Assembly: GCA_947448865.1 (NCBI GenBank) | Contig: CANFOW010000001.1 | Location: 4,845 to 68,844 of the forward strand | Reading direction: 5' to 3' | Source: Actinomycetota bacterium | GTDB taxonomy: Bacteria; Actinomycetota; Actinomycetes; S36-B12; UBA5976 | Length of the DNA: 64,000 bases | Part shown: positions 6,660 through 54,450 of the stretch, piece by piece | Position numbering within the stretch: the stretch's first letter is position 1 | Layout of the letters: every line of letters starts with the position of its first letter | Position numbers and translations under genes: made by a program | The notes under the pieces: model-generated | Databases searched by the model: none | What the model saw: only the letters and a program-made list of their open reading frames with translations | What the model was told of the DNA's origin: nothing

Positions 6660-6663
6660 CCAT

Positions 6664-9905: not shown

Positions 9906-9920
9906 ACCAGAATCAGCATT

Positions 9921-21723: not shown

Positions 21724-22890
21724 GTGAGTGATCCAAAGGTTCAAGTCCAAAACGCAGTTGATGCGATACGCAATGAATTACTCGAAGTCAGCCACTGGGT
21801 CCACGCACATCCAGAAATTGCGTGGCAAGAATTTGAATCTAGCCAGTACCTTGCAACATTTCTTGAATCGCATGGTTTTTCAGTTGAGCGAAAGTTTGTC
21901 GGACTCGACACCGCGTTTAAGGCAACCTTCGGATCCGGCGACCTAACAATTGCATTGTGTGCAGAGTATGACGCGTTACCTGGCCTTGGCCATGCCTGTG
22001 GTCATAACATCATCGCTTCAGCCTCAGTCGGTGCCGCGCTTGCACTGAAAGAAGTTGCCAATGACATTGACGCAACGATTGTGGTTTTTGGTACGCCTGC
22101 CGAAGAAGGTAGTGGCGGAAAAATTTCTATGCTTTCCCAGAATGCATTTCATGGCGTTGATGTCGCCGCATTAATTCACCCAGGACCAGTAGATGTTGAC
22201 CACGGTGATCCATTTGCAGTTAAGCACATCGATGTCGCATATACGGGTAAGGCATCACATGCTGCTGCGTATCCCGAACATGGCGTGAACGCCGCCGATG
22301 CTTTCACGATTGCTCAAGTTGCTATTGGGTTACTTCGCCAGCAACTATCTCCAACCGTGCGCGTTCATGGGATTGTGACGCGAGGTGGCGAAGCCGCAAA
22401 CGCAATTCCGGAACGTACTGAAGGTCGCTGGTATGTTCGTGCCAATACACTGGCGCAACTTGATGACATTTATCAACGCGTTGTGAAATGTTTTGAAGCC
22501 GGCGCGATTGCAACGGGTTGTGAACTGCACATCGAAGATGACCTCAATCCCTATTCAGAGTTCACTAATCATGCACAGCTCACGCAGCGTTACCGGGCTA
22601 ACGCCGAGTCACTTGGTCGTCGATTCGATGCCCCAGAACCAGCAACACGCATGAATCGCGCCAGCACAGACATGGGCAATGTGTCCGCAGTCGTGGCATC
22701 GTTTCATCCATACATCGGCATTAATTCAGGTACGGCCGTTAATCACCAGCATCAATTTGCAGCCGCAAGCATCACACCTGATGCCGATCAAGCAGTCATC
22801 GATGGTGCTAAAGGATTGGCAATGACTATGGTGGACGTGGCTACCGATCCTGTGCTTCGCCAATACGTTAAGGAGTTCTCGCGCGCATGA
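21724..22890 (+). CDS. M20-family amidohydrolase / peptidase (M20D, aminoacylase-like)
   Basis: HAHPEIAWQEFES, DALPGLGHACGHNII and GTPAEEGSGGK motifs. GTG start 2 nt after the upstream stop. Confidence 0.8.
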   Translation: MSDPKVQVQNAVDAIRNELLEVSHWVHAHPEIAWQEFESSQYLATFLESHGFSVERKFVGLDTAFKATFGSGDLTIALCAEYDALPGLGHACGHNIIASASVGAALALKEVANDIDATIVVFGTPAEEGSGGKISMLSQNAFHGVDVAALIHPGPVDVDHGDPFAVKHIDVAYTGKASHAAAYPEHGVNAADAFTIAQVAIGLLRQQLSPTVRVHGIVTRGGEAANAIPERTEGRWYVRANTLAQLDDIYQRVVKCFEAGAIATGCELHIEDDLNPYSEFTNHAQLTQRYRANAESLGRRFDAPEPATRMNRASTDMGNVSAVVASFHPYIGINSGTAVNHQHQFAAASITPDADQAVIDGAKGLAMTMVDVATDPVLRQYVKEFSRA

Positions 22891-24044
22891 CCCGTGACGT
22901 ATTTCTGGAAGGCATGAGTCGATCTGCAACAACCGTGTCAATTGTGACAACGGATGGACCAGCTGGTCGTTCCGGTGCAACCGTAAGCGCCATGAGTTCG
23001 GTTTCCGCGGATTCAGATCGTCCCTCTTTACTTGTCTGTGTAAATAAAAATTCGAAATCAGCTGACATCATCCGCGCTAACGGACGTTTTTGTGTCAATG
23101 TACTGCGCGATAGTCAAGCATGGATTTCTGATGCGTTTGCTGGTCGCACACCCATTGAAGACAAGTTCACTGCAGGCACATGGGTCGAAACGGGTTTGGG
23201 TTCTTGGTCACTTGAGAATGCGCTCGTCACTTTTGACTGTGAACTGAAAAGTGAAATCCTGTACGGAAGTCACTATGTGTTTATTGGTGAAGTAGAAAAT
23301 GCGGCAGTCGCCGAAAGTGGACCGGCGCTTGTGTATTCAAATCGCTCGTATGGATCTTCGGTTCCACTCGGTGCCACCACAGCGAGTCGTCGCGAAGTTC
23401 CTGAAGACGGCGACATTACAACTGTTGCGATTGGGTGCTACACCTCACTTGCACCATTCCTGATTCCTCGCATTATTAGCGATTATCAGTCCATCAATCC
23501 ACTTGTGAACATCAAAGTGTATGAAGGTAATCAAGATAATCTGATCCATCATTTAGGTGTTCGTGAAGCAGATTTCCTGATTACTTACCAAGCCGAAATT
23601 CCTGACTGGTGGACCGAATCAACTCAAATTGCATCCCTTGCACCTCAAGTGATTTTGCCCGCCTTACATCCGTTAGCTGATCAAGACAGTGTGAGTCTTG
23701 AACAACTTGCTGATGAGCCACTAGTGGCTCTCGATAGTCCACCACTTCGAAACTATGTCCTTTCGTTGTTTACCGATGCCGGTCTTCAGGCAAACATTGC
23801 CTACAGTTCGCCGTCGTATGAAATGGTGCGATCCATGGTGGGTAACGGTCTTGGCTTCACAATTTTGGGAACAAATCCTGCTAGCCCCATCACACTTGAT
23901 GGCCGCCTGACTGTGTCACGTCCGTTATCAAATGACAGTGCACCAAGTTCGATTGTGCTTGTGACTGACACCAGCCGAGAGATAAGTGCTGAAGCGCAAG
24001 CAGTCCACGCCTACATTGCAGAGCAACTCAACAACGCGCTGTAA
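22887..24044 (+). CDS. Chimeric protein: N-terminal flavin-reductase-like FMN-binding domain fused to a LysR-type effector-binding domain, with no HTH
   Basis: Residues 1 to ~165 (FLEGMSRSATTVSIVTT...GATVSAMSSVSADSDRPSLLVCVNKNS...FCVNVL...GSHYVFIGEV...LVYSNRSYG) fit the flavin reductase family. Residues ~178-385 (TVAIGCYTSLAPFLIPRIISDYQSINPLVNIKVYEGNQDNLIHHL...) fit the LysR substrate-binding domain. ATGA overlap with the M20 gene. Confidence 0.7.
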   Translation: MTRDVFLEGMSRSATTVSIVTTDGPAGRSGATVSAMSSVSADSDRPSLLVCVNKNSKSADIIRANGRFCVNVLRDSQAWISDAFAGRTPIEDKFTAGTWVETGLGSWSLENALVTFDCELKSEILYGSHYVFIGEVENAAVAESGPALVYSNRSYGSSVPLGATTASRREVPEDGDITTVAIGCYTSLAPFLIPRIISDYQSINPLVNIKVYEGNQDNLIHHLGVREADFLITYQAEIPDWWTESTQIASLAPQVILPALHPLADQDSVSLEQLADEPLVALDSPPLRNYVLSLFTDAGLQANIAYSSPSYEMVRSMVGNGLGFTILGTNPASPITLDGRLTVSRPLSNDSAPSSIVLVTDTSREISAEAQAVHAYIAEQLNNAL

Positions 24045-29820: not shown

Positions 29821-30405
29821 ATGTCAAGAAAAGCAATTTTTGCTATCTTTCTGAGCGTCACTTTGACCTCTGCCATCGCTGGCCCAGCTCATGCTGATGC
29901 TCCGATCGACTTTTGTGGAAATGCACAAACTGCGGTTGTCACCACAATCTCAACTGGCACGTGTCCTACGGGAACGCTCTCACTTGGACCGGGTGTAGTT
30001 AATCACGGTGACAAGCGTCCCACTGCACTACTTCCGCAATTGAACAATCGATGGAAAGTTGCGAAAAAGGCTGCTGCTAAAGCAGGCCACAAACTGACCA
30101 TCACAAGTGGCTGGCGCAGTTTGGCAACTCAAGAATATTTATTTAAGCGCGCTGTGAAAAACAATGGCTCAGTAAAAGAGGCCATGAAGTGGGTGCTGCC
30201 CGCCAAACTCTCGCATCACCCTTGGGGTGTCGCGATCGATGTGAACTACCAATATGGAGACCCTAAAGGCGCACATTGGCTTGAAGCTAACGGCTACAAA
30301 TACGGTTTGTGTCGGGCCTATAAAAACGAATGGTGGCACTTTGAGCCACTAACGGCTCCTGGAACTAAATGTCCGAAACCGAAAAAGTGGCCTACGAGTA
30401 AGTAG
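29821..30405 (+). CDS. Secreted M15B (VanY-like) D-alanyl-D-alanine carboxypeptidase
   Basis: Signal peptide ending AHADAP. Motifs SGWRSLATQEYLF, SHHPWGVAIDV and EWWHFE (Zn ligands of the VanY family). GAGGAGGGG SD. Confidence 0.75.
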   Translation: MSRKAIFAIFLSVTLTSAIAGPAHADAPIDFCGNAQTAVVTTISTGTCPTGTLSLGPGVVNHGDKRPTALLPQLNNRWKVAKKAAAKAGHKLTITSGWRSLATQEYLFKRAVKNNGSVKEAMKWVLPAKLSHHPWGVAIDVNYQYGDPKGAHWLEANGYKYGLCRAYKNEWWHFEPLTAPGTKCPKPKKWPTSK

Positions 30406-31234
30406 CGAAGTACTGGTCTAGTGCAAACCTAATTTCTGAAAAAGCCAGCGCTGGTGTGTAAGCAACATTCGTGTAATAAGGCGCAAAATCAATTTCGCGC
30501 AAAGCATCGAGGGCTCGCGGTTCAAGCAATTTGAGATACATCATCGTCGTATTAGGAACTCGCGGAAATTCAGTGAGAACCGTTCCGCATCCATATCCAA
30601 AAACGCGCATTGCAATGTCTGCGTCTTGCGGAGTGCTCTTATTGACATAAATTGAATCTGGGACTTTCACTACATCACGAAGTGTTGTTGACTTTTTCCA
30701 AATTTGTAAACATGTTTGCAAACTATTTTTCGCATACACATCGTCACCTGTGACGTTGACGTAATTGATTGATAAGTCATGATCGAGGACTACATGAAAT
30801 GAACGGTCCAGCCGATTAGTCACACTCCACTTTCGCCACGACCGCGGAACGATAAAAGCAATGACGTCACACATTGTGGCTGCGTGATTAAAAAATGGAA
30901 TCGATAATGCGTTATTTCGACCAAATGGAGGATTACCCACTGCAACCATTTCCGTTTGCGTATTCGTCCACTCCAAGAAGTTCGCTCGGACAACTGCGTC
31001 ATGATGCGGCTCTATGTCAACGCCTACGACGTCGGTTAGACCACGAATAGCTAACGCATCAATAAACGAACCTGTACCTGCACTTGGTTCAAGCCAAGTA
31101 CGTGTCCGAGTATCAGGCAGTGCCGCAAGAACTTGATCAACAACCCACAATGCAGTTTGCGCCGGCGTGTAAAACTGCTCTTTGCCAGTGACACGAGTGT
31201 TGCCTGGTTTGGCGGGCTTCACGGGTGCAGACAC
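30392..31234 (-). CDS. N6-adenine DNA methyltransferase, gamma-class motif order, no adjacent endonuclease
   Basis: Motif I LEPSAGTGSF precedes motif IV GNPPFG. The C-terminal ~150 aa are unassignable and presumably form the target-recognition domain. Confidence 0.7.
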   Translation of the reverse strand: MSAPVKPAKPGNTRVTGKEQFYTPAQTALWVVDQVLAALPDTRTRTWLEPSAGTGSFIDALAIRGLTDVVGVDIEPHHDAVVRANFLEWTNTQTEMVAVGNPPFGRNNALSIPFFNHAATMCDVIAFIVPRSWRKWSVTNRLDRSFHVVLDHDLSINYVNVTGDDVYAKNSLQTCLQIWKKSTTLRDVVKVPDSIYVNKSTPQDADIAMRVFGYGCGTVLTEFPRVPNTTMMYLKLLEPRALDALREIDFAPYYTNVAYTPALAFSEIRFALDQYFATYS

Positions 31235-31250
31235 TTACTCAATATATCGG

Positions 31251-31323
31251 TGCCCACGAGAGGAATCGAACCTACGACCTTCTGCTCCGGAGGCAGACGC
31301 TCTATCCACTGAGCTACGTGGGC
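31251..31323 (-). tRNA. tRNA-Arg (anticodon CCG), CCA not encoded
   Basis: The reverse complement folds as a cloverleaf. Acceptor GCCCACG/CGTGGGC is perfect, D-arm is GCTC-AGTGGATA-GAGC, and anticodon arm is TCTGC-CTCCGGA-GCAGA. The T-arm GTAGG-TTCGATT-CCTCT has one G-U pair and one U-C mismatch. Confidence 0.85.
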
Positions 31324-33416: not shown

Positions 33417-36400
33417 GTGTCCGGTCCAAATCCGACCCAGTTTGGAGCCAATGATTGGCTCGTCGATGAGATGTACCAGCAGTACCTCGAAGACAAGGAA
33501 TCAGTAGACCCAGCGTGGTGGGAGTTCTTCGCGGACTACACACCGACTGACTATTCCGCAGCAAAAGCAGCTTCTGTTTCAGCAATCACAGCACCGGTTG
33601 CTGCTGCTCCTGTAGCACCGACCAGTGCGCCCGTTGCAACCAGCGTGCCAGTTGCAGCCACTTCGCCCGATGCAGAAAAACTCAAAGGTCCTGCGGCTCG
33701 AGTTGTTGTGAATATGGAAGCCAGCCTTGAAGTCCCCACCGCGACAAGTGTGCGGGCTGTCCCAGCAAAATTGATGGTCGACAACCGAATAGTCATAAAC
33801 AATCACCTTGCTCGCAACCGTGGTGGAAAAATAAGTTTCACTCATATCATTGGATACGCATTAGTGCGCGCTCTTAAAGATGTTCCTGATATGAACGTCG
33901 CGTATACGACTCTTGATGACAAACCAGCAATCATTCGGCATCCGCACGTCGGTCTCGGTCTAGCAATCGACTTGGCAAAAGAAGATGGAACACGTCAGTT
34001 ACTTGTTCCTTGCATTAAACAAGCAGACACTCTCGACTTTGCATCATTCTGGGCTAGTTATGAAGACGTTGTACGCAAAGCACGCCAAGGTAAACTAGCA
34101 GTTGAAGATTTCCAAGGCACCACAGTTAGCCTGACTAATCCTGGAACTATTGGCACGGTTCATTCAGTGCCGCGTCTCATGCAAGGTCAAGGTGTCATCA
34201 TTGGCGTTGGCGCGATGGAATACCCCGCAGAATGGCAAGGCGCTTCCGAAGTTATTTTGGCGCGCAATGGCATTAGCAAAATTATGACCTTAACAAGCAC
34301 CTACGATCATCGCGTCATTCAAGGCGCGCAGTCCGGTGAGTTCCTTCGTCGTATCCACCAACTGCTGCTTGGTGAATTTGGTTTCTACGATGACATTTTC
34401 AAGTCACTCGGAATCCCCTACGAACCAATCCGTTGGGCGCAAGACATTGCGACATCACATGACGATGAACTAGATAAGACAGCTCGGGTTCAGGAAATGA
34501 TCCACGCCTATCGTGTGCGTGGCCACCTCATGGCTGACATTGACCCACTTGAGTACCAGGTTCGTACACATCCTGATTTGGACATTGCAAATCATGGCTT
34601 GACTTTGTGGGACTTGGATCGCGAGTTTGCAACTGGCGGATTCGGCGGTAAGTCATTTGCAATGCTGCGCGATATTCTTGGTGTTCTTCGTGATGCCTAC
34701 TGTCGCACTATCGGTATTGAATACATGCACATTCAAGATCCAGAACAGCGCAAATGGATTCAAGACCGTGTCGAAGTGCGTCATGCGAAAACAGATCGCG
34801 TCGAACAACTTCGCATTCTGCACAAGTTGAATGAAGCCGAAGCGTTTGAAACGTTTTTACAAACAAAGTACGTAGGACAAAAACGATTCAGCCTCGAAGG
34901 TGGCGAAAGCGCAATTCCACTTCTCGAACACATCCTGTACTTGTCGTCACACGACGGACTTGATGAAGTATGCATTGGCATGCCACACCGTGGACGACTC
35001 AATGTGCTCGCAAATATTGCGGGCAAGAGTTACGAACGCATTTTCAATGAATTTGAAGGAAACTACGGCGAAGAATCTGTGCAAGGTTCCGGCGACGTGA
35101 AGTACCACCTCGGAACCGAAGGTCAATACACAAGTGTTGATGGCAAGTCGATAAATGTGTACCTCGCTGCAAATCCGTCACACCTTGAAGCCGTCAATCC
35201 TGTCCTTGAAGGCATTGTGCGGGCAAAGCAAGACCTCATTAATGAAAAAGAAAAGTACTCAGTATTGCCGCTGTTGATGCATGGCGATGCGGCCTTCGCT
35301 GGTCAAGGTGTTGTCGCAGAGACGCTTCAATTCAGCCAACTACAGGGTTACCGTGTTGGTGGCACTATTCACCTTGTTATTAACAACCAAGTCGGCTTTA
35401 CCACGTCTCCGCGGTATAGCCGTACCAGCGTGTATGCAACCGATGTCGCACGCATGATTCAAGCGCCAATTTTCCACGTCAATGGCGATGATCCTGAAGC
35501 AGTAGTTCGGGTTGCCAAAATGGCGTACGACTACCGTCAGGCATTCCATAAAGATGTTGTTATCGATATGGTGTGTTACCGCCGACGTGGTCATAACGAA
35601 GCCGATGATCCTTCACTCACCCAACCGTTAATGTACGAAGTTATCGACCAAAAGCGCTCAACGCGCAAGTTGTACACCGAAGCGCTTATTGGTCGCGGTG
35701 ACATTACTGTCGAAGAAGCGGAAGCAGCACTGAAGCACTACCAGGACGAGTTGGAAAAAGTTTTCCAAGCAACCAAGGCGTCATCCGGTGAGCACTTCAA
35801 TGCGGGTAGCAATGAAGTTGTTGCAACGGGTCAGCAGAGTTTGGAACCTCAAACTCCGTCAATTGATGTTCCGACCGGAATTTCACGTGAAGTAGTCGAC
35901 CGCGTTGTGGCATCGCAATTAAATATGCCCGAGGGCTTTACTGTTCATCCACGCCTGCTGCCGCAATTGCAGCGTCGTGCCGAAATGGTCGCAACTGATC
36001 AGATCGACTGGGGCATGGGAGAAGCACTCGCAATCGGGTCGCTACTCACCGAAGGCACAACTGTTCGCCTTTCAGGTCAAGATTCACGGCGCGGAACTTT
36101 TGGTCATCGTCATGCCGTCATCGTAGACAAGCAGACTGGTTGGCAATACAAGCCGCTCAAGCAGTGTTACGAAAATGGCGCACGACTGTACGTCTACGAC
36201 TCACTGCTGAGTGAATACGCTGCGATGGGTTTCGAGTACGGATATTCAGTGGTTCGCCCTAACGCACTGGTGTTGTGGGAAGCCCAATTCGGTGACTTTG
36301 TCAACGGAGCTCAAACCATCATTGACGAATTCATTTCCGCCGGTGAACAAAAGTGGGCGCAACGAAGCGATGTCACGTTGCTCTTGCCGCATGGTTTTGA

Positions 36401-37019
36401 AGGCCAAGGTCCTGATCACTCATCAGCACGTGTCGAGCGCTTCTTACAACTATGCGCTCAAGACAACATCACTGTCGCGATGCCATCTACTCCAGCGTCA
36501 TATTTCCACCTATTGCGCTGGCAGGTGCACTCACCTTTAGTGCGTCCACTTGTTGTATTCACACCGAAGTCATTACTGCGAGCAAAGTTTGCGACGTCCG
36601 CAGTCAGTGACTTCACAAGTGGAACGTTCACATCAATCATTCGAGACACGACTGTGAACTCGAATGACGTAACAACAGTTTTGTTGTGTTCGGGCAAGGT
36701 GTACTACGACCTGGTTGCCGAGCGAGAAAAGTCTGGCCGACGTGACGTCGCAATCATTAGAGTGGAGCGACTGTACCCACTTCCGTCGTTGCTTTTGCCA
36801 CAGGCTCTGGCTGAATATCCAGGACTTAAGAATGTGCGTTGGGTACAAGAAGAACCTCGTAACCAAGGTGCAGGTGGATTTATGTTGCTGAACTTGCCCG
36901 AAGTTATTAACCGCCCACTCACACTCGTGTCACGTCCAGCGTCTTCATCGCCAGCGGTTGGCTCGCACCACCGCCACGAAGTTGAACAAGCTGCGCTCGT
37001 CGCACAAGCATTCGAGTAA
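33417..37019 (+). CDS. kgd: Multifunctional 2-oxoglutarate decarboxylase/dehydrogenase E1 with N-terminal E2-type acyltransferase domain (actinobacterial Kgd/OdhA)
   Basis: 1200 aa. Ala/Pro linker, E2 catalytic [17 protein letters not shown], and E1 ThDP motifs ([25 protein letters not shown]). GTG start with GAAGGA SD. Confidence 0.95.
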
Positions 37020-37021
37020 AC

Positions 37022-37204
37022 ATGTACTTCACTGACCGTGGAATTGAAGAATTAGCTAAACGGCGTGGCGAAGAAGATGTCACACTTGAATGGCTTGCTG
37101 ATCAGTTGCGCATGTTTGTGGACATCAATCCCGACTTCGAGATTCCAATTGAACGCTTTGCTACCTGGCTTGCCCGACTTGATGATGATGTAGAGGAAGA
37201 CTAA
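37022..37204 (+). CDS. Small acidic conserved hypothetical protein (60 aa)
   Basis: Starts 2 nt after the kgd stop, and its own stop overlaps the next ATG (TAATG). Acidic C-terminus DDDVEED. No function is recognisable. Confidence 0.5.
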   Translation: MYFTDRGIEELAKRRGEEDVTLEWLADQLRMFVDINPDFEIPIERFATWLARLDDDVEED

Positions 37205-38166
37205 TGCGTGCTGCTATTGCAACAAGTTTTGATTCAGACAACCCAGTCGCTGGACTGACAATCGGTGAACATCCTGATCCTGAAATCAAGGACGGATGGA
37301 TTCGGGTGCACGTGAAAGCTGCCTCGTTAAATCATCACGATGTCTGGACTTTACGTGGAGTTGCTACAACAGCCGACCGCTTACCTATTGTCTTGGGCAC
37401 AGATGCCTCAGGTGTACTTGATGACGGAACCGAAGTCATTGTGCATGCTGTTATCGGCGATGCAAGTGATGGCGATGAAACACTTGATCCAAAGCGATCG
37501 CTCTTAAGTGAAATCTACGACGGTACCTTCGCTGAATTCGTCACTGTGCCAGCCCGTAACGTCATTGACAAGCCGGATTTCCTGACCTTTGAAGAAGCGT
37601 CGTGCCTACCGACTGCCTGGCTTACTGCCTATCGCATGCTTTTCACCAAGTCAGGACTTAAGCCCGGCGATACTGTGCTCATCCAAGGTGCTGGCGGCGG
37701 AGTTGCTACCGCTTTGATTCAACTTGCACACGCTGCCGGTTTTACGGTGTGGGTGACATCTCGTGATGCCGCCAAACGCGAATATGCACTCACCCTTGGC
37801 GCAGATGAAGCATTCGAAGTCGGCGCGAAGTTGCCAGGCAAAGTTGATGCGGTGATGGAAAGCGTCGGTGAGGCAACGTGGTCGCACTCTATGCGTTCAC
37901 TTCGTCCCGGTGGTCGTATTGTCATTTGCGGTGCCACATCCGGAGCTAACCCGCCAGCTGATCTCAATCGCTTGTTTTTCTTGCAACTCGAAGTAGTTGG
38001 TTCAACGATGGGAACTCGCGAAGAGTTTTCGCAGCTCGTGGCATTCTTGGGCAAAACGGGACTTCGTCCACAAATTCAACAAACCTTCGGTTTGTCCGAG
38101 ACGGATCAAGCGATTGCGCTCATGGCCAGCGGCGATGTTCGAGGAAAGCTCGTAATCGTTCCCTAG
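37204..38166 (+). CDS. Medium-chain (zinc-type) dehydrogenase/reductase, NADPH:quinone-oxidoreductase-like
   Basis: MDR architecture with GAGGGVATALIQLA Rossmann motif and N-terminal GroES-like domain. Confidence 0.8.
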   Translation: MRAAIATSFDSDNPVAGLTIGEHPDPEIKDGWIRVHVKAASLNHHDVWTLRGVATTADRLPIVLGTDASGVLDDGTEVIVHAVIGDASDGDETLDPKRSLLSEIYDGTFAEFVTVPARNVIDKPDFLTFEEASCLPTAWLTAYRMLFTKSGLKPGDTVLIQGAGGGVATALIQLAHAAGFTVWVTSRDAAKREYALTLGADEAFEVGAKLPGKVDAVMESVGEATWSHSMRSLRPGGRIVICGATSGANPPADLNRLFFLQLEVVGSTMGTREEFSQLVAFLGKTGLRPQIQQTFGLSETDQAIALMASGDVRGKLVIVP

Positions 38167-38174
38167 TGTGAACT

Positions 38175-38204
38175 TTGACCTGCACAATGGTGCGTTGCTA
38201 ATTA
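38175..38204 (+). promoter_or_regulatory. Possible sigma-70-type promoter for the heliorhodopsin gene
   Basis: TTGACC (38175-38180), an 18-nt spacer, then TAATTA (38199-38204). A GGAG SD lies 4 nt before the ATG at 38215. Read-through from the upstream gene is equally possible. Confidence 0.3.
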
Positions 38205-38214
38205 CAGTTGGAGC

Positions 38215-38973
38215 ATGAGTAACCCTACGCACGCAAAATTACGTCGTTTTAATCTGATTGCTGGAATCCTGCACTTGCTTCAACTCGCAGCAGTGTTGGC
38301 ATTGTCCACCGACTTCACACTTCCTGTTCGTGCTTCTTACATGGCCGGCCCGCCAGGAACTGACTTCACCGAACCCATTGTGTTGTTCCATTCGCCATTG
38401 GCACTTGGTGTTGCTTTGTTCCTTGCGCTGTCATCTGTGGCGCACTTCATTGTGGCTAGCCCTGCGTTCTTCGCACGTTACTCGCAGGGACTTACCCAGC
38501 ACCGCAACTATTTCCGTTGGGTTGAATACGGCATTAGCTCATCGGTCATGATTGTGCTCATCGCGCAAGTATGTGGAGTCACAGATATTGCTGCGCTCAT
38601 CGCAATCTTCGGCGTGAATGCGTCCATGATTCTGTTCGGATGGCTACAAGAAAAGTTTTGCGAACCAGGTAGCGGCGAATGGTTGCCGTTTATCTTTGGT
38701 TGTATCGCAGGAATTGTCCCGTGGCTTGCAATTGTCATTTATATCCTTAGCCCTAAGTCACCTGTGCAAGCTGATCCTCCGGGATTCGTTTACGGCATCG
38801 TTGTGTCGCTGTTCGTGATGTTTAATTCGTTTGCCTATGTGCAGTTCAAGCAATATCAAGCAAAGGGCAAATGGAGCGACTACCTTCGTGGCGAGCGCGC
38901 CTACATCGTCCTGAGTTTGGTCGCGAAGTCTCTGCTGGCTTGGCAAATCTTTGCCAACACGCTCATTCCTTAA
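38215..38973 (+). CDS. Heliorhodopsin (inverted-topology retinal-binding 7-TM protein)
   Basis: Collinear with heliorhodopsin 48C12 as I recall it: FNLIAGILHLLQ, FRWVEYGISSSVMIVLIAQ, FGVNASMILFGWLQEK, GCIAGIVPW, GFVYGI, KGKWSDYLRGERAYIVLSLVAKSLLAWQIF. The Schiff-base Lys is K238 (AAG at 38926-38928). Confidence 0.9.
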   Translation: MSNPTHAKLRRFNLIAGILHLLQLAAVLALSTDFTLPVRASYMAGPPGTDFTEPIVLFHSPLALGVALFLALSSVAHFIVASPAFFARYSQGLTQHRNYFRWVEYGISSSVMIVLIAQVCGVTDIAALIAIFGVNASMILFGWLQEKFCEPGSGEWLPFIFGCIAGIVPWLAIVIYILSPKSPVQADPPGFVYGIVVSLFVMFNSFAYVQFKQYQAKGKWSDYLRGERAYIVLSLVAKSLLAWQIFANTLIP

Positions 38974-39284
38974 TGAGAGCTGCCTAGATTCGCAAGGAAT
39001 CGCAAGGATTGAGGTAATCGCCACTTTACGGTGGCGATTACCTGGCTTGAAGTAAGAGCACCATACTGACGGGAATCGTGGCTCACTTCGGCGTTGTCAC
39101 CGTGGACAAAAACATGTGAGCCTTCAATACGTGTGACCCGCTTAATCTCAGTTCGCTCACCTTGATCAATAAGCACCACATCATTAACAGCGAACGAACT
39201 GCCGTAGCGCACTAAGACAACGTCGCCTGGCGCCAAATACGGAACCATAGACAGTCCCGTAACACGAGCTAACCCAAGAGCCAT
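38970..39284 (-). CDS. sodX: Ni-SOD maturation protease SodX (S26 signal-peptidase family)
   Basis: GLSMVPYL Ser-nucleophile motif and a KRV..I block. It is divergent from sodN, as in Streptomyces. Its stop shares a TTAA tetranucleotide with the heliorhodopsin stop. Confidence 0.8.
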   Translation of the reverse strand: MALGLARVTGLSMVPYLAPGDVVLVRYGSSFAVNDVVLIDQGERTEIKRVTRIEGSHVFVHGDNAEVSHDSRQYGALTSSQVIATVKWRLPQSLRFLANLGSSH

Positions 39285-39377
39285 AGCCCTATTGTTCCAG
39301 CCTTGGTGATGCCAACCGCACCTCTGTGTCGTAGCCTTGTCCTAGCGGTTAGCCGCAACCAATCTTCGGAGGACACT

Positions 39378-39773
39378 ATGAAGTTTTTTGCACCAACAAT
39401 CACAGTCAGCGCACACTGCGACTTGCCATGTGGCGTTTACGACCCAGCCCAGGCGCGTATCGAAGCATTGTCAGTTAAGGCATGCATGGAGAAGTACCAC
39501 GCATCCGACGACGCCAACTTCAAGGCTCGCGCCATTGCAATCAAAGAAGATCGCTCACACATGGTCAAGGATCACCTGTGGGTTCTGTGGACTGACTACT
39601 TCAAGGCACCACACTTTGAAAAGTACCCACAGTTGCACCAACTCTTCAACGAAGCCACAAAACTTGCTGGCGCAGCTGGCACCAAGGGCACCGTTGACGT
39701 AGCAGTTGCTGATCAGCTACTTGCAAAGATTGACGAAATCGCCGACATCTTCGCTGATTCCAAAAAGGCCTAA
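39378..39773 (+). CDS. sodN: Nickel superoxide dismutase precursor
   Basis: A 12-aa leader MKFFAPTITVSA is followed by the Ni-hook HCDLPCGVYDPA. GGAGGA SD. The track start at 39303 is an upstream extension. Confidence 0.95.
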   Translation: MKFFAPTITVSAHCDLPCGVYDPAQARIEALSVKACMEKYHASDDANFKARAIAIKEDRSHMVKDHLWVLWTDYFKAPHFEKYPQLHQLFNEATKLAGAAGTKGTVDVAVADQLLAKIDEIADIFADSKKA

Positions 39774-39782
39774 TCACTCAAC

Positions 39783-40265
39783 ATGTCCATCGTCGTTCGT
39801 CGCGCTACACCTGATGATGTAGCCCAGATGCACGAGATGATTCTCGAACTTGCAATTTTCGAGAATGAACCAGACGCTGTAACCGCCACCGCAGAGGACC
39901 TTCACCAGGCTCTCTTCGGTGGCGTTTCGCTTTCTGCACATGTTATTGACGCACCGGACGGACATGGCCTTGCTGCCATGGCGATCTGGTTCTTGAATTA
40001 CAGTACTTGGGACGGAAAGCACGGCGTATATCTTGAAGACCTTTATGTACGCGAACCTTTTCGTGGTCAAGGACTTGGTAAGGCGCTGATGCGCGAATTA
40101 GCAGCCATTTGTGTTGACAACGGATATTCAAGATTCCAATGGTGGGTACTCGACTGGAACCAGAAAGCCATTGATGTGTATCGCAGACTCGGTGCTGTGC
40201 CTATGGATGAGTGGACGGTCTATCGGCTCTCAGGCGAGCCATTGAACGAACTTGGTGGTTCGTAG
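39783..40265 (+). CDS. GNAT-family N-acetyltransferase
   Basis: Acetyl-CoA motif RGQGLGKALMREL. It starts 9 nt downstream of sodN. Confidence 0.8.
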   Translation: MSIVVRRATPDDVAQMHEMILELAIFENEPDAVTATAEDLHQALFGGVSLSAHVIDAPDGHGLAAMAIWFLNYSTWDGKHGVYLEDLYVREPFRGQGLGKALMRELAAICVDNGYSRFQWWVLDWNQKAIDVYRRLGAVPMDEWTVYRLSGEPLNELGGS

Positions 40266-40645: not shown

Positions 40646-41396
40646 AGACAGTGACTTGCGATCTCACGATCGCGAGATGCTTGAGCAGTTAGGCGCTCTA
40701 GAAACTAACACTCCCGAACACGAGTCACTTCGCGCTGCCCTCATTGAGCGGCACCTGCCACTTGTGCACTTCCTTGCGCGCAAGTTCGCTGATCGTGGTG
40801 AACCGTTGGACGATTTGGTGCAAGTCGGCACTATCGGACTGATTAAGTCACTTGATCGATTTGATGCATCCTTAGGTTTTGAATTTTCCACATATGCAAC
40901 GCCTACAATCGTCGGTGAAATTAAGCGCTACTTTCGAGACAAGACCTGGGCTATCCGCATTCCCCGACGGTTACAAGAACTTGGTGCTCAAGTCAGCAAA
41001 GCTCGCGAGGAACTTACACATCAGTTGGATCGCTCACCAACACCGCAAGACATTGCCACACGTTTGTCGATTTCGGTAGACGATGTCATGGAAGCAATCG
41101 AAGCAAACTCTGCATACTCCACCGTAAGTCTTAGTGATAGTCACGATGATGAATCGCAATCATTGTCAGACAGATTGGGCTTTATCGATGAATCATTAGA
41201 AAATGTCGAGTACCGAGAATCACTTCGACCGCTTCTTGAAGCACTCGATGCACGGGAAAAGAAAATTTTAGTCATGCGATTTTTTGATAATAAGAGTCAA
41301 TCTGAAATCGCTTCGGAATTAGGAATTTCGCAAATGCATGTGTCGCGATTACTTGCTAAGACGCTCGCGCATTTGCGCACTGAACTACAAGGTTAG
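40638..41396 (+). CDS. Group-3 RNA polymerase sigma factor (SigB/SigF type)
   Basis: Region 2 DDLVQVGTIGLIKSLDRFD..FSTYATPTIVGEIKRYFRD, and region 4 SQSEIASELGISQMHVSRLL. Confidence 0.85.
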   Translation: MHKDSDLRSHDREMLEQLGALETNTPEHESLRAALIERHLPLVHFLARKFADRGEPLDDLVQVGTIGLIKSLDRFDASLGFEFSTYATPTIVGEIKRYFRDKTWAIRIPRRLQELGAQVSKAREELTHQLDRSPTPQDIATRLSISVDDVMEAIEANSAYSTVSLSDSHDDESQSLSDRLGFIDESLENVEYRESLRPLLEALDAREKKILVMRFFDNKSQSEIASELGISQMHVSRLLAKTLAHLRTELQG

Positions 41397-41737
41397 TTTG
41401 ACGACTTCACAGCGGCGACAAATGCTGTGATTCCAATGACACCAACGAGTGCGCCAACGAATTTTGCATTCCACCCAGTTCCGCTCAGCAACGTGTAGGC
41501 AATAATCCCAGCAAAAATTTGTAGCAACAAATATGGCGTTCGTGACCAGGTCTGTCCTTTGTGGTGCGCAAAAGACAGCGCTATAAGACCTAAGGCAAAC
41601 ACAGTAAAGATGATTGCCTGCACACTCGGTGAACCGACGGTGCTGTGATCACGGTGTGCGTTAATAACAATGGACACGGCAAACACAATTAACGATATTG
41701 CTTCAATGAAACCAAGGGCCACCGCAATTTTCCGCAT
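41393..41737 (-). CDS. Small integral membrane protein (4 predicted TM), function unknown
   Basis: Four hydrophobic stretches and clean start/stop. No recognisable motif. Confidence 0.5.
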   Translation of the reverse strand: MRKIAVALGFIEAISLIVFAVSIVINAHRDHSTVGSPSVQAIIFTVFALGLIALSFAHHKGQTWSRTPYLLLQIFAGIIAYTLLSGTGWNAKFVGALVGVIGITAFVAAVKSSN

Positions 41738-48980: not shown

Positions 48981-49760
48981 ATGAACATCGACTTGGAATT
49001 TGCATTGCGTATGGCAGCTGAAGCCGACATTATGACGATGTCCCGGTATCGCGCATTGGATCTGGCGATTGAAACTAAACCAGACCGCACACCAGTAACT
49101 GAAGCAGACAAAAACACCGAACAACTGTTACGCGGCATGATCGCGCAAGAACGACCAGAAGATGGGATTGTCGGCGAAGAATATCAGGCAGTCAATCCGT
49201 CATCCTCGCGACAATGGGTACTCGACCCAATTGACGGTACTCGTAACTATCTTCGCGGTGTTCCCGTCTGGGCAACCTTAATTGCATTGCTGGTTGATGG
49301 CGAGCCACAAGTCGGTGTGGTTTCGGCCCCAGCGTTACGACGTAAGTGGTGGGCAGCAATCGGTGAAGGCGCCTTCACACAAGACGTAGACGATTCAGTG
49401 CGATCAATTCAGGTGTCGAAAATTAGCAACATCGCCGATGCATCATTTTCATTTTCAGATCCCATTGGCTGGGAAGCTTTTGGCAAGGGTGGCGGACTTG
49501 CAGCGATTCAATCACGCGTAGACCGAATCCGCGCATATGGAGATTTTTGGTCACATATGATGGTTGCCGAAGGTGTTGTGGACATTGCAGCAGAACCTGA
49601 ACTGAGTCCTTGGGATCAAGCGGCGCTCGTACCAGTGGTTCGCGAAGCGGGTGGCACTGTCACCGGACTTGATGGCAAACCACTTTTTGATTCAGGAAGC
49701 TCACTCACAACAAATGGTCGTCTTCATGACGCAGTTCTAGATCTGATTGCTACGAATTAA
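48981..49760 (+). CDS. hisN: Inositol-monophosphatase-family enzyme, likely histidinol-phosphatase HisN
   Basis: KPDRTPVTEADK, GEE and WVLDPIDGTRNY motifs. I prefer the ATG at 48981 over the track's 48843, whose extension overlaps rsgA. Confidence 0.75.
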   Translation: MNIDLEFALRMAAEADIMTMSRYRALDLAIETKPDRTPVTEADKNTEQLLRGMIAQERPEDGIVGEEYQAVNPSSSRQWVLDPIDGTRNYLRGVPVWATLIALLVDGEPQVGVVSAPALRRKWWAAIGEGAFTQDVDDSVRSIQVSKISNIADASFSFSDPIGWEAFGKGGGLAAIQSRVDRIRAYGDFWSHMMVAEGVVDIAAEPELSPWDQAALVPVVREAGGTVTGLDGKPLFDSGSSLTTNGRLHDAVLDLIATN

Positions 49761-51094
49761 CGTCGACTTACCCGCAGTGGAAGTCCATGAGCTGGTCGAA
49801 GCGTGACTGATGCATCGATTGATACCTCACCTGACACAACGGGCTCAAACTTCCAGCGCGAACTGAGATCCGCAAGAATCATCGATGCCTCTAGTCGTGC
49901 CATGTCGCGGCCGATGCACTGGCGAGGTCCGGCGCCAAACGGTAAGTAACCCATTTGTGGCACACCACCAGCAAAACGATCGGGAATAAATTGCTCCGCG
50001 TCATTCCACACGCTCGCATGTCGGTGAACTAACCACGGGCTGACAATCACCATGGACTCAGCAGGGATAACAAAACCGTCAATCTCAATGTCCTCAAGCA
50101 CACGCCGCGTGATGACCCACGCTGGTGGGTACAAACGCAATGCTTCATCGAACACCATGTTCGCGCGCTGCGTATCTGCAGCTAACAACTCCTGCTCTGA
50201 TGAATCACGGCTTAAGAGATGCCATGCCCATGTCAGTCCGCTAGCCACGGTTTCATGTCCGGCAACTATGAATGTTGCGACCTCATCGCGCACTTGTTGT
50301 GGAGTCAGTGGCACGTCAACATCTGGATCAAGCAACACGTCTAGCATGTCGCGAATGGGACTATTGGGATCATGTGGTTGTGCTTGTCGCGCATTCACTA
50401 TCGCGGAAATAGAACGATCAAGCTGTCTAATTGCGCGACGCATACCAAGGTTGTTTCGTGTGGGAATCGACATCGGCATGGGAAGTGGATTTCGGGCACG
50501 TTGTATCACGCCATGTAATGCAGCCAGTGTGGCTTCCGTAATGACTGCCGCATCGTCGGCGAGGTCCACACCAAATAATGTTGCCCCCGTGATTTCTAAG
50601 GCGAGTTCCATCATTGCTTGATCAACATCAATAAGCGCTGGACCGTCTTGGGTTAAATTCGCCCAGTGTGCGTTTAATCGCTCCAACGCATTGACAACAT
50701 GCCCTCGCGTTAGCGCCACCATCTCATGATGGAAAGCGGGCTGAAGCATCCGTCGGCGAGGTCGCCAGGCATGAGTGTCAGATGTGAGTAAACCCGTGCC
50801 TGTCACTAAGGACAACGTTGTGTATTGAACAGTTCGCTTGCCCATCGCTTTGTTGTGATTTACTAAAATTTCTCGAGCACCCGCAGGTGACGACACGAGA
50901 TACGTAGCTGGTCGGGGTATCGGGAATTGAACTACGTCGCCGCTGTCATGCCACACCTGATGTAAATAACTCAGCGGGTCATGTTGAATGCGGCGAATTC
51001 CCCGCAACATTTGTCCACCATCTGGTCCAGGTGCGGTGACCGGAGTGTTCCAGCCATAGCGTTTTGGAAAATCTTCAGGTGCTTCCCACGGCAT
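49757..51094 (-). CDS. Cytochrome P450 monooxygenase
   Basis: Heme-thiolate loop FGAGPRQCIG, ExxR (EALRLYP) and I-helix AGHETV. I prefer the ATG at 51094, 2 nt after the upstream stop. Confidence 0.9.
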   Translation of the reverse strand: MPWEAPEDFPKRYGWNTPVTAPGPDGGQMLRGIRRIQHDPLSYLHQVWHDSGDVVQFPIPRPATYLVSSPAGAREILVNHNKAMGKRTVQYTTLSLVTGTGLLTSDTHAWRPRRRMLQPAFHHEMVALTRGHVVNALERLNAHWANLTQDGPALIDVDQAMMELALEITGATLFGVDLADDAAVITEATLAALHGVIQRARNPLPMPMSIPTRNNLGMRRAIRQLDRSISAIVNARQAQPHDPNSPIRDMLDVLLDPDVDVPLTPQQVRDEVATFIVAGHETVASGLTWAWHLLSRDSSEQELLAADTQRANMVFDEALRLYPPAWVITRRVLEDIEIDGFVIPAESMVIVSPWLVHRHASVWNDAEQFIPDRFAGGVPQMGYLPFGAGPRQCIGRDMARLEASMILADLSSRWKFEPVVSGEVSIDASVTLRPAHGLPLRVSRR

Positions 51095-51096
51095 GC

Positions 51097-52032
51097 TTAA
51101 CCCAAGTCTCGAATTGAATCCATCATCATGTTCCAAAATCGGTCGACATTCAGATCCATGGCCACATGCACATTCGCTTCGCGTCCCGTCACACTATGAA
51201 CATCAACTACTGTGGCTCCGCGAGTCAATGTGCCATTCAACTCAATTGATACTGGCAAGAATTCAGTGGACACAATGCTTGGGTCAATAACGCATGCAAC
51301 TGCAACAGGATCATGCAATGGCGGATCTGGCATCCCAAATACATCGCGATATGTGTGAGCAAAAAATTTCAACAGGTCCACACAGGTTGTCGCAAGGTGA
51401 GTTCCGAGTGCATCAATGCGATCAAGTACTTCCGGCGTTGCTAAGGCCATGTGTGACACGTTCAAACCCGTCATCACAATCGGAAGTCCCGAAGTCAGAA
51501 CAACGTCAGCAGCTTCTGGATCAGCCCAAATGTTAAATTCCGCGTACGGCGTCCAGTTTCCGCGCGTCACACTGCCGCCCATAAATGAAATTTTTTCAAT
51601 TCTCGAATGAAGTTCAGGGTGCGCCAGCAAGAACGAAGCGATGTTGGTCATTGGACCCGTCGGAATTAAAGTCACAGGGCGGTCGCATTCCCGAACGAGT
51701 TCGGCAATTAACTCAACAGCAGAAAGCGGGCTCACGTCGTATGCAGGTTCTGGTAACTCTGCCCCATCAAGCGCACTTGCGCCGTGAATCGTTGGAGCCG
51801 CACTCGCTTTTCCTACGAGTGGGTCATTTGCGCCGCGGGCAATAGGTGGAGCAATACCAGCCAATGTGCAAATCCGCTGCGCGTTGTAGGTGACTTTGTC
51901 TAGCGAACCATTCCCAGACACCGTCGTGATGCCGAGCAGTTCAACAGCGGGATTTGCCGCCGCCAACAAGATGGCCATAGCGTCATCATGACCTGGATCG
52001 CAATCAAGAATTACCGGAATAGGTTGGTTCAC
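51097..52032 (-). CDS. Inosine/uridine-preferring nucleoside hydrolase family protein
   Basis: N-terminal Ca-binding fingerprint VILDCDPGHDDAMAI. The GTG start overlaps the kinase stop (GTGA). Confidence 0.85.
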   Translation of the reverse strand: MNQPIPVILDCDPGHDDAMAILLAAANPAVELLGITTVSGNGSLDKVTYNAQRICTLAGIAPPIARGANDPLVGKASAAPTIHGASALDGAELPEPAYDVSPLSAVELIAELVRECDRPVTLIPTGPMTNIASFLLAHPELHSRIEKISFMGGSVTRGNWTPYAEFNIWADPEAADVVLTSGLPIVMTGLNVSHMALATPEVLDRIDALGTHLATTCVDLLKFFAHTYRDVFGMPDPPLHDPVAVACVIDPSIVSTEFLPVSIELNGTLTRGATVVDVHSVTGREANVHVAMDLNVDRFWNMMMDSIRDLG

Positions 52033-53807
52033 GCTTCTATTGTGCTAGATACGGGTTCCAGAGCCACGCTCGCCATCAAACACATGCCGCCAGCCTTGGG
52101 AGACAGCGACCAATCGATAGTAATTTCATCAAGCATGCGAGAGCCAAGTCCTCGGGTCTGAGAATCCCCTACTCCACCGTCATTGCACACTTCGATGTGT
52201 AAAACGCCTGGACTCGCCAAAGTCAGAAAAATCTCAATATTTTGTGAATTCCCATGGCGAATACTGTTACTCACAGCCTCTTTGAAAATTTCTGCGACCG
52301 CATGAGACGTTGCTTCCTGCGCATCAATGACATCTAGTAGGTCAACGCCCTCTACTAATGAAATGTTGCATACGCCATCCCACAGTTGTGTGATTTCATC
52401 AAGCGCGATGCGAGCACTTGAATGGATATTTCCGATGTCAACAAGGCTTCGAGCTAATCCAGCTATCTCTTCGCGAATCTGGTTGATTTCCAATTGCGTT
52501 AGATGAGTCGTTCGAACTAATCTCAAGCTCGCAGCTGTGAGTCCAGCTTGAACTCGTCCATGCAAGTGCAATGCCGCAGACCTTTGAATGTGCCACACAT
52601 TTTTAGCACTCCGGCTAATTTCAAGCGACGATAACTGATTTGCAACTGCAAATTCTGATTCGTATTGCAGCGCTTGCTGGTCATAGGCAAGCGTGACAGC
52701 CATGAGAAAAGCCACAATCGTCATCCCAGGATATCCAGACAATGTCACAGCGCCAATCTTGTATACATCAACGAACAATGCGGCCACATGAACGACAGAA
52801 ACCAAGGCAACCACTTGAAGGGCTACGACTTCAACAATTCCAAGCGCCAGAGGTATCAAGCGGCTCGATATAACGTATCGCTTAAAAAAAGTAATAAGAA
52901 AGAAGAGCGTAGCTCCGAATATGCCGGCATACGCCAATGCGTAAACACCTACTCGTGCGAACATAGACGGAACACCCACAAGAAACATCAATGCTGTAGT
53001 CGCCGCAGGATTGACTAACAGTTTGGCGTTTATGCGCGAGGTAAGAAGGCGACTTCTGGGTTGTTCGGACTGCCACTCATCAACAGAAGTTGGGATTAAC
53101 GGCTTGTCATACAAGATTTGGGTTAACGGTCTCAAAATCTTGTCAACTAGTTGCGAAATTCGCTCGCCTAAAGTCTGAAGTTCGTCAACATCATCAATGC
53201 CTAGATGTTCAAAACGTATGGTGATGTCACGAAGCGCGGGTTCAATGTCGGCAGCAATCAATCGATGTACTTCATCGTGCTTACGAAGTATATCTGCTTG
53301 ACCATTGTGATGAAGTGCAACGAGTCGACCTCGTTCTCGAGCCAACTCGAATCGAGCATGCTCACGTTCTCGCGACACTGACACGAACACCGCAGCAAAT
53401 GAAAGGACTCCAAGTGCCGAGATACCACCACCAATAATTCGGTATGCCCACTCAAAGGAATCATTAAATCCGAGTTTAAGTTCAACAATCCCGACGAAAA
53501 TTCCCCTGAAGACTCCACAGATCATGAATGCGAAAAGAGTCATCATGGGACGTGACTCGCGCTCAGAGGTGGGCAGCACAGTCATCACAAATAACACTGC
53601 CACCGAGACCGCCACCGCGTGACTGGCAAGTCCGACAAGAATCCAGGTCGTCAAGGGCCCGCCAAAGCGACTTCGATCAAATCCGGCAGTGGAAAAAAGT
53701 GAAAATGGAATCGTTGTGACAGCAAGAATCCAACTCATCGAGTGTTGGCTTCCTACCCGATTGAGAATTGAATGTACAGAGTAGCGGTTTGTTGACTCTT
53801 TACTCAT
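52029..53807 (-). CDS. Atypical polytopic membrane sensor histidine kinase
   Basis: Two clusters of TM helices are separated by a charged, coiled-coil-like segment. C-terminal H-box-like AALHLHGRVQAGL and HATPase blocks EAVSNSIRHG and GLGSRMLDE. ATG at 53807 overlaps the regulator stop by 8 nt. Confidence 0.7.
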   Translation of the reverse strand: MSKESTNRYSVHSILNRVGSQHSMSWILAVTTIPFSLFSTAGFDRSRFGGPLTTWILVGLASHAVAVSVAVLFVMTVLPTSERESRPMMTLFAFMICGVFRGIFVGIVELKLGFNDSFEWAYRIIGGGISALGVLSFAAVFVSVSREREHARFELARERGRLVALHHNGQADILRKHDEVHRLIAADIEPALRDITIRFEHLGIDDVDELQTLGERISQLVDKILRPLTQILYDKPLIPTSVDEWQSEQPRSRLLTSRINAKLLVNPAATTALMFLVGVPSMFARVGVYALAYAGIFGATLFFLITFFKRYVISSRLIPLALGIVEVVALQVVALVSVVHVAALFVDVYKIGAVTLSGYPGMTIVAFLMAVTLAYDQQALQYESEFAVANQLSSLEISRSAKNVWHIQRSAALHLHGRVQAGLTAASLRLVRTTHLTQLEINQIREEIAGLARSLVDIGNIHSSARIALDEITQLWDGVCNISLVEGVDLLDVIDAQEATSHAVAEIFKEAVSNSIRHGNSQNIEIFLTLASPGVLHIEVCNDGGVGDSQTRGLGSRMLDEITIDWSLSPKAGGMCLMASVALEPVSSTIEA

Positions 53808-54450
53808 GGTCGAAAGGGATACCAGCGGATTGCACGTAAGCGCGCGCAGCTTTAGTTCGAGAATTAATGGATTGGTCGCTTTCAATACCTGCTGCCTCAA
53901 ACGTTCGACCGATTAAATGCTCAACTGCGCGAATAGATGTGCCACGACGTTGCGCAATTTCAGAATTGGAAAACCCAAGCGCAATCGCGCGTAGTACACC
54001 AATCTGGGAGCGGGATAAACCAGCAAGTGGGCGTTGCGGCTCGAGGTCATCTCGCGTGACTCGTTTCATTTGCTCAGTGAATGCAGTATCAACAACTTTC
54101 AGCAAGGCGCCACGTTGAGCAATCGTGTCTTTGCGGACATAACTCACACCCTTAGGGATCGAACGTGACTCTTGACCAATAAATCGTGGGTCCGGCAAAT
54201 GCGTTAATAACACAACAGCAACGTAGGGAAATTGACTTCGTAGATACTCTGCGAAGTCAATTCCAGTCGGCCCAGCACCAAGTTCGATGTCAACCAGGGC
54301 GACGTCTGGATCAAACTCAAGCGCCATGCGTTTGCCCTCTGCAGCAGTAGCGGCAACGGCTACTTCGTAGTTTTCGGAGGTCAACAAATCGGCAGTTAAG
54401 GACCGGAGTAATGCATCATCTTCCACAATGAGGACACGGCACGCTGTCAT
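53800..54450 (-). CDS. NarL/LuxR-family response regulator
   Basis: Receiver domain (VLIVEDD, DVALVDIEL) and C-terminal LuxR HTH LSRSQIGVLRAIALGFSNSEIAQRRGTSIRAVEHLI. Confidence 0.85.
   Translation of the reverse strand: MTACRVLIVEDDALLRSLTADLLTSENYEVAVAATAAEGKRMALEFDPDVALVDIELGAGPTGIDFAEYLRSQFPYVAVVLLTHLPDPRFIGQESRSIPKGVSYVRKDTIAQRGALLKVVDTAFTEQMKRVTRDDLEPQRPLAGLSRSQIGVLRAIALGFSNSEIAQRRGTSIRAVEHLIGRTFEAAGIESDQSINSRTKAARAYVQSAGIPFDHE

Follow-up and report, generated by a model that had tools for sequence, protein, structure and literature searches.

A stretch of 64,000 nucleotides from an Actinomycetota bacterium (assembly GCA_947448865.1, contig CANFOW010000001.1, positions 4,845 to 68,844 of the forward strand; hereafter the window) carries a heliorhodopsin (HeR) gene at 38215..38973, which a first-pass annotation had recognized from the bare sequence. 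The open reading frame (ORF) had been described exactly, down to its product of 252 amino acids. The founding member of the family, HeR-48C12, stems from an actinobacterial fosmid from Lake Kinneret and is represented by several solved structures (PDB 6SU3, 6SU4, 6UH3, 9LJJ). The features of the gene are the following:

38215..38973, plus strand: heliorhodopsin coding sequence, subfamily 1 (48C12-like), ATG start, TAA stop, 252 amino acids
38272..38274, plus strand: codon of His20 (48C12 H23), helix 1
38443..38445, plus strand: codon of His77 (48C12 H80), helix 2
38524..38526, plus strand: codon of Glu104, the Schiff-base counterion (48C12 E107), WVEY motif of helix 3
38848..38910, plus strand: residues 212-232, end of transmembrane helix 6, intracellular loop 3 (ICL3) and start of helix 7 (KQYQAKGKWSDYLRGERAYIV); the equivalent surface binds glutamine synthetase in AbHeR
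38926..38928, plus strand: AAG codon of Lys238, the retinal Schiff-base lysine (48C12 K241), S234-x3-K238 motif of helix 7

The heliorhodopsin and its family

The assignment to the family is carried by profile searches of the kind that the first-pass annotation had called for. The Pfam Heliorhodopsin model PF18761 is matched over its full length (model positions 1-242 of 242; E 7e-98; 327 bits against a cutoff of 26.7), and the NCBIfam equivalog NF038020, 'heliorhodopsin HeR', scores 333 bits against a cutoff of 100. The type-1 rhodopsin model PF01036 gave no match to the protein at E <= 0.01 and the Schiff-base motif is SxxxK, not DxxxK, which agrees with the earlier remark that motifs of type-1 pumps are missing. 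Among solved structures, phmmer placed the three 48C12 sequences first (6SU3/6SU4, 6UH3 and 9LJJ; E ~1e-107), followed by TaHeR (E 1e-53) and the eukaryotic Cv06 (9VFC; E 6e-34). Judged by its sequence, the gene is a genuine and intact heliorhodopsin.

Residues 8-252 align without gaps to residues 11-255 of the 48C12 chain with 160 identities in 245 positions (65%), and the proposed collinearity at a constant offset of -3 is thereby borne out. The differing 35% of residues fall mostly in loops and the N-terminus; ICL3, for instance, reads QAKGK here and KGKGK in 48C12. Seven sequence blocks had been listed as shared with 48C12. All of them occur in the protein at this offset, and four (FGVNASMILFGWLQEK, GCIAGIVPW, GFVYGI and FNSFA) are identical in the two proteins, whereas the remaining three differ in part, with 14/19, 17/19 and 28/30 matches.

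At each of 20 functional, subfamily-1 and fenestration positions taken from literature lists, the residue is the same as in 48C12. The four residues singled out earlier, K238 with its AAG codon, E104, H20 and H77, stand opposite K241, E107, H23 and H80 in the ungapped alignment, and S234 (48C12 S237) completes the SxxxK motif on helix 7 by which heliorhodopsins are defined (PMC12817590). Identity extends to pocket and cavity positions (Y105, S109, E146, F203, F206, Q210) and to the markers of subfamily 1 in the Kovalev classification as summarised in PMC9529153 (I139, A165, P169, L199 and Q210, corresponding to I142, A168, P172, L202 and Q213). Residues of the fenestration, the proposed carotenoid site, are present as well (F159, C163, G166, F203, N204 and A207 for F162, C166, G169, F206, N207 and A210). 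All the checked functional residues lie among 93 alignment columns that are invariant in 48 homologues.

An AlphaFold2 (AF2) model built on the 48 homologues (mean pLDDT 73.9, pTM 0.74) contains seven helices (residues 4-30, 62-81, 99-119, 125-148, 157-178, 190-215 and 223-250), the number given in the first-pass annotation, and K238 lies together with S234 within the last of them. A long two-stranded hairpin in the first extracellular loop (strands 35-40 and 55-61) is typical of heliorhodopsins. The model thus depicts a seven-transmembrane protein with this hairpin, in which K238 would be positioned to bind retinal, with E104 as counterion and the His20/His77 pair nearby. Foldseek returned template modelling (TM) scores of 0.90 to 6SU3 and 0.83 to TaHeR from a Thermoplasmatales archaeon (PDB 6IS6; 41% identity), an archaeal protein of the same family and fold and a far more distant relative. 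Microbial rhodopsins of type 1, such as actinorhodopsin 9HFK, share the seven-helix retinal-protein fold and the lysine on helix 7, but they reach TM scores of only 0.5-0.68 at 10-14% identity, and the orientation predicted for the window protein is opposite to theirs. Lysines and arginines number 8 in the loops on the N-terminal side, in addition to K8, R10 and R11 of the positively charged segment already pointed out before helix 1, and 2 on the opposite side. By the positive-inside rule this bias agrees with the N-in orientation determined experimentally for 48C12 (PMC9529153), and the data favour the prediction, made earlier too, of a cytoplasmic N-terminus.

Related loci were collected as the 80 closest ones, with one genome per species, and nearly all of them belong to metagenome-assembled genomes (MAGs) and isolates of freshwater Nanopelagicales (acI lineage). 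A heliorhodopsin is expected in a monoderm host, and this is what the closest loci and the actinobacterial chromosome markers of the window point to (WhiB, an actinobacterial SigH with a zf-HC2 anti-sigma factor, PdtaS, the E2-E1 fusion Kgd and DUF6104). Comparison with a 92%-identical orthologue revealed 116 synonymous and 20 nonsynonymous codon differences (locus L001); by this count the gene is under purifying selection. The family is large, with more than 7,900 proteins at E <= 1e-10 among the 8,000 candidates scored. An identical protein (P0001) is present in NCBI-derived data, the name 'heliorhodopsin HeR' is already attached to a 92%-identical cluster mate (MEI6405668.1), and every cultured Nanopelagicales isolate is reported to carry a heliorhodopsin (2025 study, PMC12817590). 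The gene is therefore already known; it is a routine, catalogued representative of an abundant family, not a protein of a new kind.

Neighbouring genes in the window and in related loci

The genes on either side of the heliorhodopsin gene, given here as context, are arranged as follows:

33417-37019, plus strand: kgd (E2+E1 fusion), upstream and co-directional
37022-37204, plus strand: DUF6104, ORF of 60 amino acids between kgd and the next gene
37204-38166, plus strand: MDR-family zinc alcohol dehydrogenase (Zn-ADH)/quinone-oxidoreductase-like gene, directly upstream of the heliorhodopsin gene
38167..38214, plus strand: spacer of 48 nt from the Zn-ADH stop to the heliorhodopsin start, with TTGACC (38175-38180), 16 nt and GCTAAT (38197-38202) picked out by eye
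38970-39284, minus strand: sodX-like S26/S24 peptidase gene, convergent with the heliorhodopsin gene and overlapping its stop by 4 nt
39303-39773, plus strand: sodN (nickel superoxide dismutase), ORF as listed, divergent from sodX; TIGR02753 at 143 bits against a cutoff of 90

The upstream genes are tightly spaced, with 2 nt between kgd and the DUF6104 gene and a 1-nt overlap (TAATG) between the latter and the Zn-ADH gene. The DUF6104 ORF, which falls below the ORF cutoff of 90 amino acids, is found at 71-85% identity in all related loci. All NCBIfam matches of the Zn-ADH lie under their cutoffs, and so does the SodX-like peptidase with TIGR02754 (45.6 against 63.25 bits). The listed sodN start is a TTG at 39303, and the true start is likely the ATG at 39378; read from there, a 12-amino-acid leader, MKFFAPTITVSA, precedes the nickel hook HCDLPCGVYDP and would be the expected substrate of the adjoining peptidase. 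Beyond sodN follow genes for a GNAT protein, an RsbW-like kinase and a SigB/F/G sigma factor.

Signals that would delimit a transcription unit are scarce. A sigma-70 consensus scan of 36900-39900 found no promoter site, and the TTGACC-16-GCTAAT pair, weakly promoter-like by eye, is below the criteria of that scan. In the same interval, terminator-like signals all lie within coding sequence and none outside it. The aligned spacers between the Zn-ADH and heliorhodopsin genes of relatives, which measure 19-75 nt, contain no clearly conserved promoter, Rfam yielded nothing near the gene, and a GGAG stands only 1 nt ahead of the ATG. On the downstream side the convergent orientation means that heliorhodopsin and sodX are not co-transcribed.

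The order Zn-ADH-HeR-sodX is kept in all related loci with enough flanking sequence (21-23 genome loci and 15-17 metagenome loci), even where identity in SodX, RsbW and DAGK has fallen to ~42-47%. The ten heliorhodopsin neighbour groups of PMC11109279 include no Zn-ADH and no superoxide dismutase, and neither is mentioned in the main text of PMC8612252. Across the 80 species-level Nanopelagicales loci, heliorhodopsin genes lie in at least five unrelated neighbourhoods:

21-23 of 80 loci: ZnADH-HeR-SodN
16 of 80 loci: nadE-GS-HeR-leuA, the AbHeR operon (GS, glutamine synthetase)
~14 of 80 loci: HeR, S51 peptidase, DUF393, glutaredoxin
9 of 80 loci: photolyase-like gene nearby
2-3 of 80 loci: GPx...Grx-SGNH-HeR-NmrA, with or without actinorhodopsin

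One Nanopelagicales MAG locus (L024) has an actinorhodopsin-like type-1 gene (11851-12633, minus strand) ~1.1 kb downstream of the heliorhodopsin gene, one gene away, and glutathione peroxidase, glutaredoxin and SGNH hydrolase genes upstream.

A metagenome scan with the Zn-ADH, which recovered orthologues at 61-66% identity, also uncovered the block without a heliorhodopsin. In one locus (L105) the order is Kgd-DUF6104-ZnADH-<SodX-SodN>-RsbW-SigB-DAGK and the Zn-ADH gene (2365-3330 of that locus) is ~40 nt from the convergent sodX; a shorter locus (L106) has the same junction, likewise of ~40 nt. With respect to kgd and sodN, the ZnADH-SodX pair has the reverse orientation in L102 and L107-L110; L103, a short locus, has this inverted junction too, and heliorhodopsin is again missing. 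The conservation of the block in these more distant relatives is thus independent of the heliorhodopsin. Taken with the variety of contexts, this means that the neighbourhood does not reliably indicate the function or the partner of a heliorhodopsin, and the conserved ZnADH-HeR-SodN block was rejected as decisive evidence of functional linkage once the versions without heliorhodopsin had been found. The gene lies where two convergent transcription units meet, a place at which an insertion disrupts nothing, and its location seems incidental to the conserved kgd...sigB block, not evidence of a dedicated operon.

Retinal supply and other genes of the window

Pfam scans covered 60 chosen window ORFs of at least 90 amino acids. 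Among these, neither phytoene synthase or desaturase, lycopene cyclase or Blh nor a second rhodopsin, a glutamine synthetase or a photolyase was found. The statement of the first-pass annotation that the window lacks crt and blh genes holds on this basis, with the caveat of a single carotenoid-related candidate, a cytochrome P450 discussed below. A tblastn search of the window with queries from related loci found no GS, NadE, photolyase-like protein, actinorhodopsin, glutaredoxin or glutathione peroxidase. Retinal must come from genes outside the window or from the environment. Four further features belong here or stand near the subject:

30392-31234, minus strand: ORF of 280 amino acids, directly adjoining the next feature
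31249-31323, minus strand: tRNA-Arg(CCG)
49757-51136, minus strand: cytochrome P450, assigned by similarity to solved structures
54482-59320, minus strand: NAD-specific glutamate dehydrogenase (NAD-GDH), 1612 amino acids, in the same window as the Kgd E2-E1 fusion

The best solved relatives of the P450 include the Thermus beta-carotene hydroxylase CYP175A1 (E 4e-47) and the plant carotene hydroxylases CYP97A3/LUT5 and CYP97C1, and by this similarity the products of the enzyme could be hydroxylated carotenoids, pigments that might serve rhodopsins as antennae. The 280-amino-acid ORF was considered as a Blh candidate and rejected: its product is not hydrophobic and has an NPPF methyltransferase-like motif (GNPPFG, as in N6-adenine methyltransferases). 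It has no Pfam or NCBIfam match, and two related loci (L081 and L082) have a 279-amino-acid gene, also with no Pfam match, at the equivalent position.

NAD-GDH and Kgd are enzymes of the 2-oxoglutarate/glutamate node that in Actinobacteria are controlled by GarA/OdhI. Their co-occurrence in the window is of interest only since another heliorhodopsin regulates glutamine synthetase.

Several other genes of the window are unusual in their own right. A cluster for a B12-dependent diol/glycerol dehydratase (2604-8295, plus strand) encodes fused large and medium subunits (742 amino acids) together with a small subunit and a reactivase. HbpS-like and FmdA/AmdA-like genes come before the cluster, which is unexpected in a streamlined freshwater actinobacterium. 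It is followed at 8307-13267 (plus strand) by a urease gamma+beta fusion (227 amino acids) and a urease-alpha-like protein (556 amino acids), flanked by Amidohydro_3 and C45/AAT-family proteins. No ureDEFG accessory genes lie nearby, and the product may therefore be a urease-like amidohydrolase of different function. The ORF at 22887-24044 (plus strand, 385 amino acids) unusually joins a flavin reductase domain to a LysR substrate-binding domain and has no helix-turn-helix. Two minus-strand ORFs have no family match: one of 623 amino acids at 52029-53900 adjoins a response regulator gene, and one of 114 amino acids at 41393-41737 recurs in the same position across the synteny block (34-77% identity).

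Photoreception and the search for a partner

The analysis as a whole indicates, with a probability of about 85%, that the 252-amino-acid protein is a functional subfamily-1 (48C12-like) heliorhodopsin, encoded on the chromosome of a freshwater Nanopelagicales actinobacterium and acting as a non-pumping photoreceptor with a partner at its cytoplasmic face. As in 48C12, TaHeR and other studied heliorhodopsins, all-trans retinal would be bound at K238. By the precedent of 48C12 and other heliorhodopsins, green-yellow light of ~550 nm would be absorbed, the retinal would isomerise to 13-cis, and the Schiff-base proton would move internally towards the His20/His77 region, with no net transport and no ion pumping. 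A long-lived O-like state of ~0.1-1 s or longer would follow, in which the light-altered cytoplasmic surface may modulate a bound partner protein. Absence of pumping and a slow photocycle were observed for 48C12 and all ten freshwater heliorhodopsins tested (10.1101/2021.02.16.431466). Action through a partner has been described for AbHeR with glutamine synthetase (PMC9529153), for TfHeR with a photolyase (PMC9769723) and for OcHeR with an ABC transporter (PMC11109279), and a photoreceptor that works on a partner through its cytoplasmic face is the most likely description of the present protein.

Some observations weigh against this reading. The confidence of the AF2 model is only moderate (mean pLDDT 73.9), the orientation derives from charge bias and homology, and no source of retinal was found within the 64 kb. 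The ZnADH-HeR-sodX order, moreover, is retained in every sufficiently long locus despite the divergence of the neighbours to 42-47%, and the gap between Zn-ADH and heliorhodopsin shrinks to only 19 nt in a sister species, which leaves room for co-transcription with the upstream oxidoreductase and for a functional link to it.

If the partner were the one known from AbHeR of Actinobacteria bacterium IMCC26103 (PMC9529153), the protein would bind a glutamine synthetase encoded elsewhere in the genome through ICL3 and raise its activity in the light. The two heliorhodopsins come from the same order (acI/Nanopelagicales), belong to subfamily 1 and have the counterion, the Schiff-base lysine and the pocket in common, and the nadE-GS-HeR arrangement occurs in 16/80 related loci. 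The window is also rich in 2-oxoglutarate/glutamate enzymes, with Kgd directly upstream and the 1612-amino-acid NAD-GDH at 54482-59320. However, neither Pfam nor tblastn found a GS or NadE homologue in the 64 kb; the gene stands outside a nadE-GS-HeR operon and its upstream neighbour is the Zn-ADH. The loop itself differs, too. AbHeR binds glutamine synthetase via K216, K217 and K220 of ICL3, K216 being the most critical and K216Q the substitution that weakens binding most (PMC9529153). Here K216 is naturally replaced by Q215 and K217 by A216, so that one of the three lysines is kept (K219 for K220), together with D222 and R225 for D223 and R226. In GS-linked heliorhodopsins the loop reads LQYKKVGKW, in the ZnADH-linked clade KQYKA[Q/K]GKW and in the window protein KQYQAKGKW. 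Eighteen positions separate the ZnADH-linked clade from the GS-linked heliorhodopsins at >=80% consensus. No general enrichment of these positions on cytoplasmic loops is seen (4/43 versus 3/49, p = 0.70), and five of the 18 cluster within residues 212-232 (p = 0.01, post hoc). The ICL3 differences suggest a partner interface that is different from, or weaker than, that of GS-linked heliorhodopsins; they are not proof of a changed interface, since descent, too, separates the two clades. Regulation of glutamine synthetase after the model of AbHeR is on balance unlikely.

Less probable still is a light input to photo-oxidative stress defence, in which the heliorhodopsin would signal to the MDR-family oxidoreductase and/or the nickel superoxide dismutase and RsbW-SigB, and defences against reactive oxygen species (ROS) would rise in the light. 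The idea draws on the conservation of the order ZnADH-HeR-sodX/sodN-GNAT-rsbW-sigB in all sufficiently long related loci, on the short upstream gaps (19-75 nt) and on the presence of SigH/RshA, WhiB and PdtaS within 7 kb. NAD(P)-dependent oxidoreductases recur beside heliorhodopsins (Gfo/Idh/MocA in the AbHeR operon, an SDR group, an NmrA-like protein in locus L023), and surveys link the family to genes for glutaredoxin, glutathione peroxidase and catalase (PMC8612252). The same block exists without the heliorhodopsin (L105, L106, L102, L103 and L107-L110), however, and the convergent sodX cannot share its transcript. Oxidative-stress genes, in addition, neighbour DTE proton-pump rhodopsins as often as heliorhodopsins (10.1101/2021.02.16.431466). 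A related proposal for this Nanopelagicales clade is capture of the gene behind the 3' end of the kgd-DUF6104-quinone-oxidoreductase genes, beside sodX/sodN-rsbW-sigB, and its retention there across deep divergence as a light switch on a neighbour; binding of the MDR-family oxidoreductase, or adjustment of the 2-oxoglutarate node or of ROS defence, are examples of what the protein could then do. This scenario is just as doubtful.

A light-harvesting and not purely regulatory role has been put forward in the form of a carotenoid-binding 'two-antenna' rhodopsin that would take up an extracellular xanthophyll at its lateral fenestration. Here, all proposed carotenoid-site residues are present and the CYP175A1/CYP97-like P450 gene is 11 kb away, but the hypothesis was built on docking in one preprint and not on binding or energy-transfer data, non-pumping heliorhodopsins have no known energy-converting output, and the P450 is assigned by similarity only; for the window protein it is quite improbable. 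Finally, light-gated or light-driven ion transport in the manner of the viral V2HeR3 is very improbable, since the viral heliorhodopsins known to transport protons belong to subfamily 2 and lack the fenestration motif, whereas the present protein has all five subfamily-1 markers, and no pumping was seen in 48C12 and ten other freshwater heliorhodopsins (10.1101/2021.02.16.431466).

Few photoreceptors in lakes are as abundant as heliorhodopsins, whose physiological role is only patchily known; the description of this role as unresolved in the first-pass annotation is fair in the light of PMC12817590, and the gene taken singly gives no special handle on the question. Its value is comparative. 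One subfamily within one bacterial order occupies at least five unrelated neighbourhoods, which cautions against deducing the function of a heliorhodopsin from its genomic context. The Zn-ADH-HeR-sodX/sodN context is absent from the neighbour groups of PMC11109279 and from the main text of PMC8612252, and if the light switch on a neighbour were real, the partner would belong to a class outside the ten described groups. GS-linked and non-GS-linked heliorhodopsins that differ in ICL3 provide a natural contrast set for the study of partner specificity.

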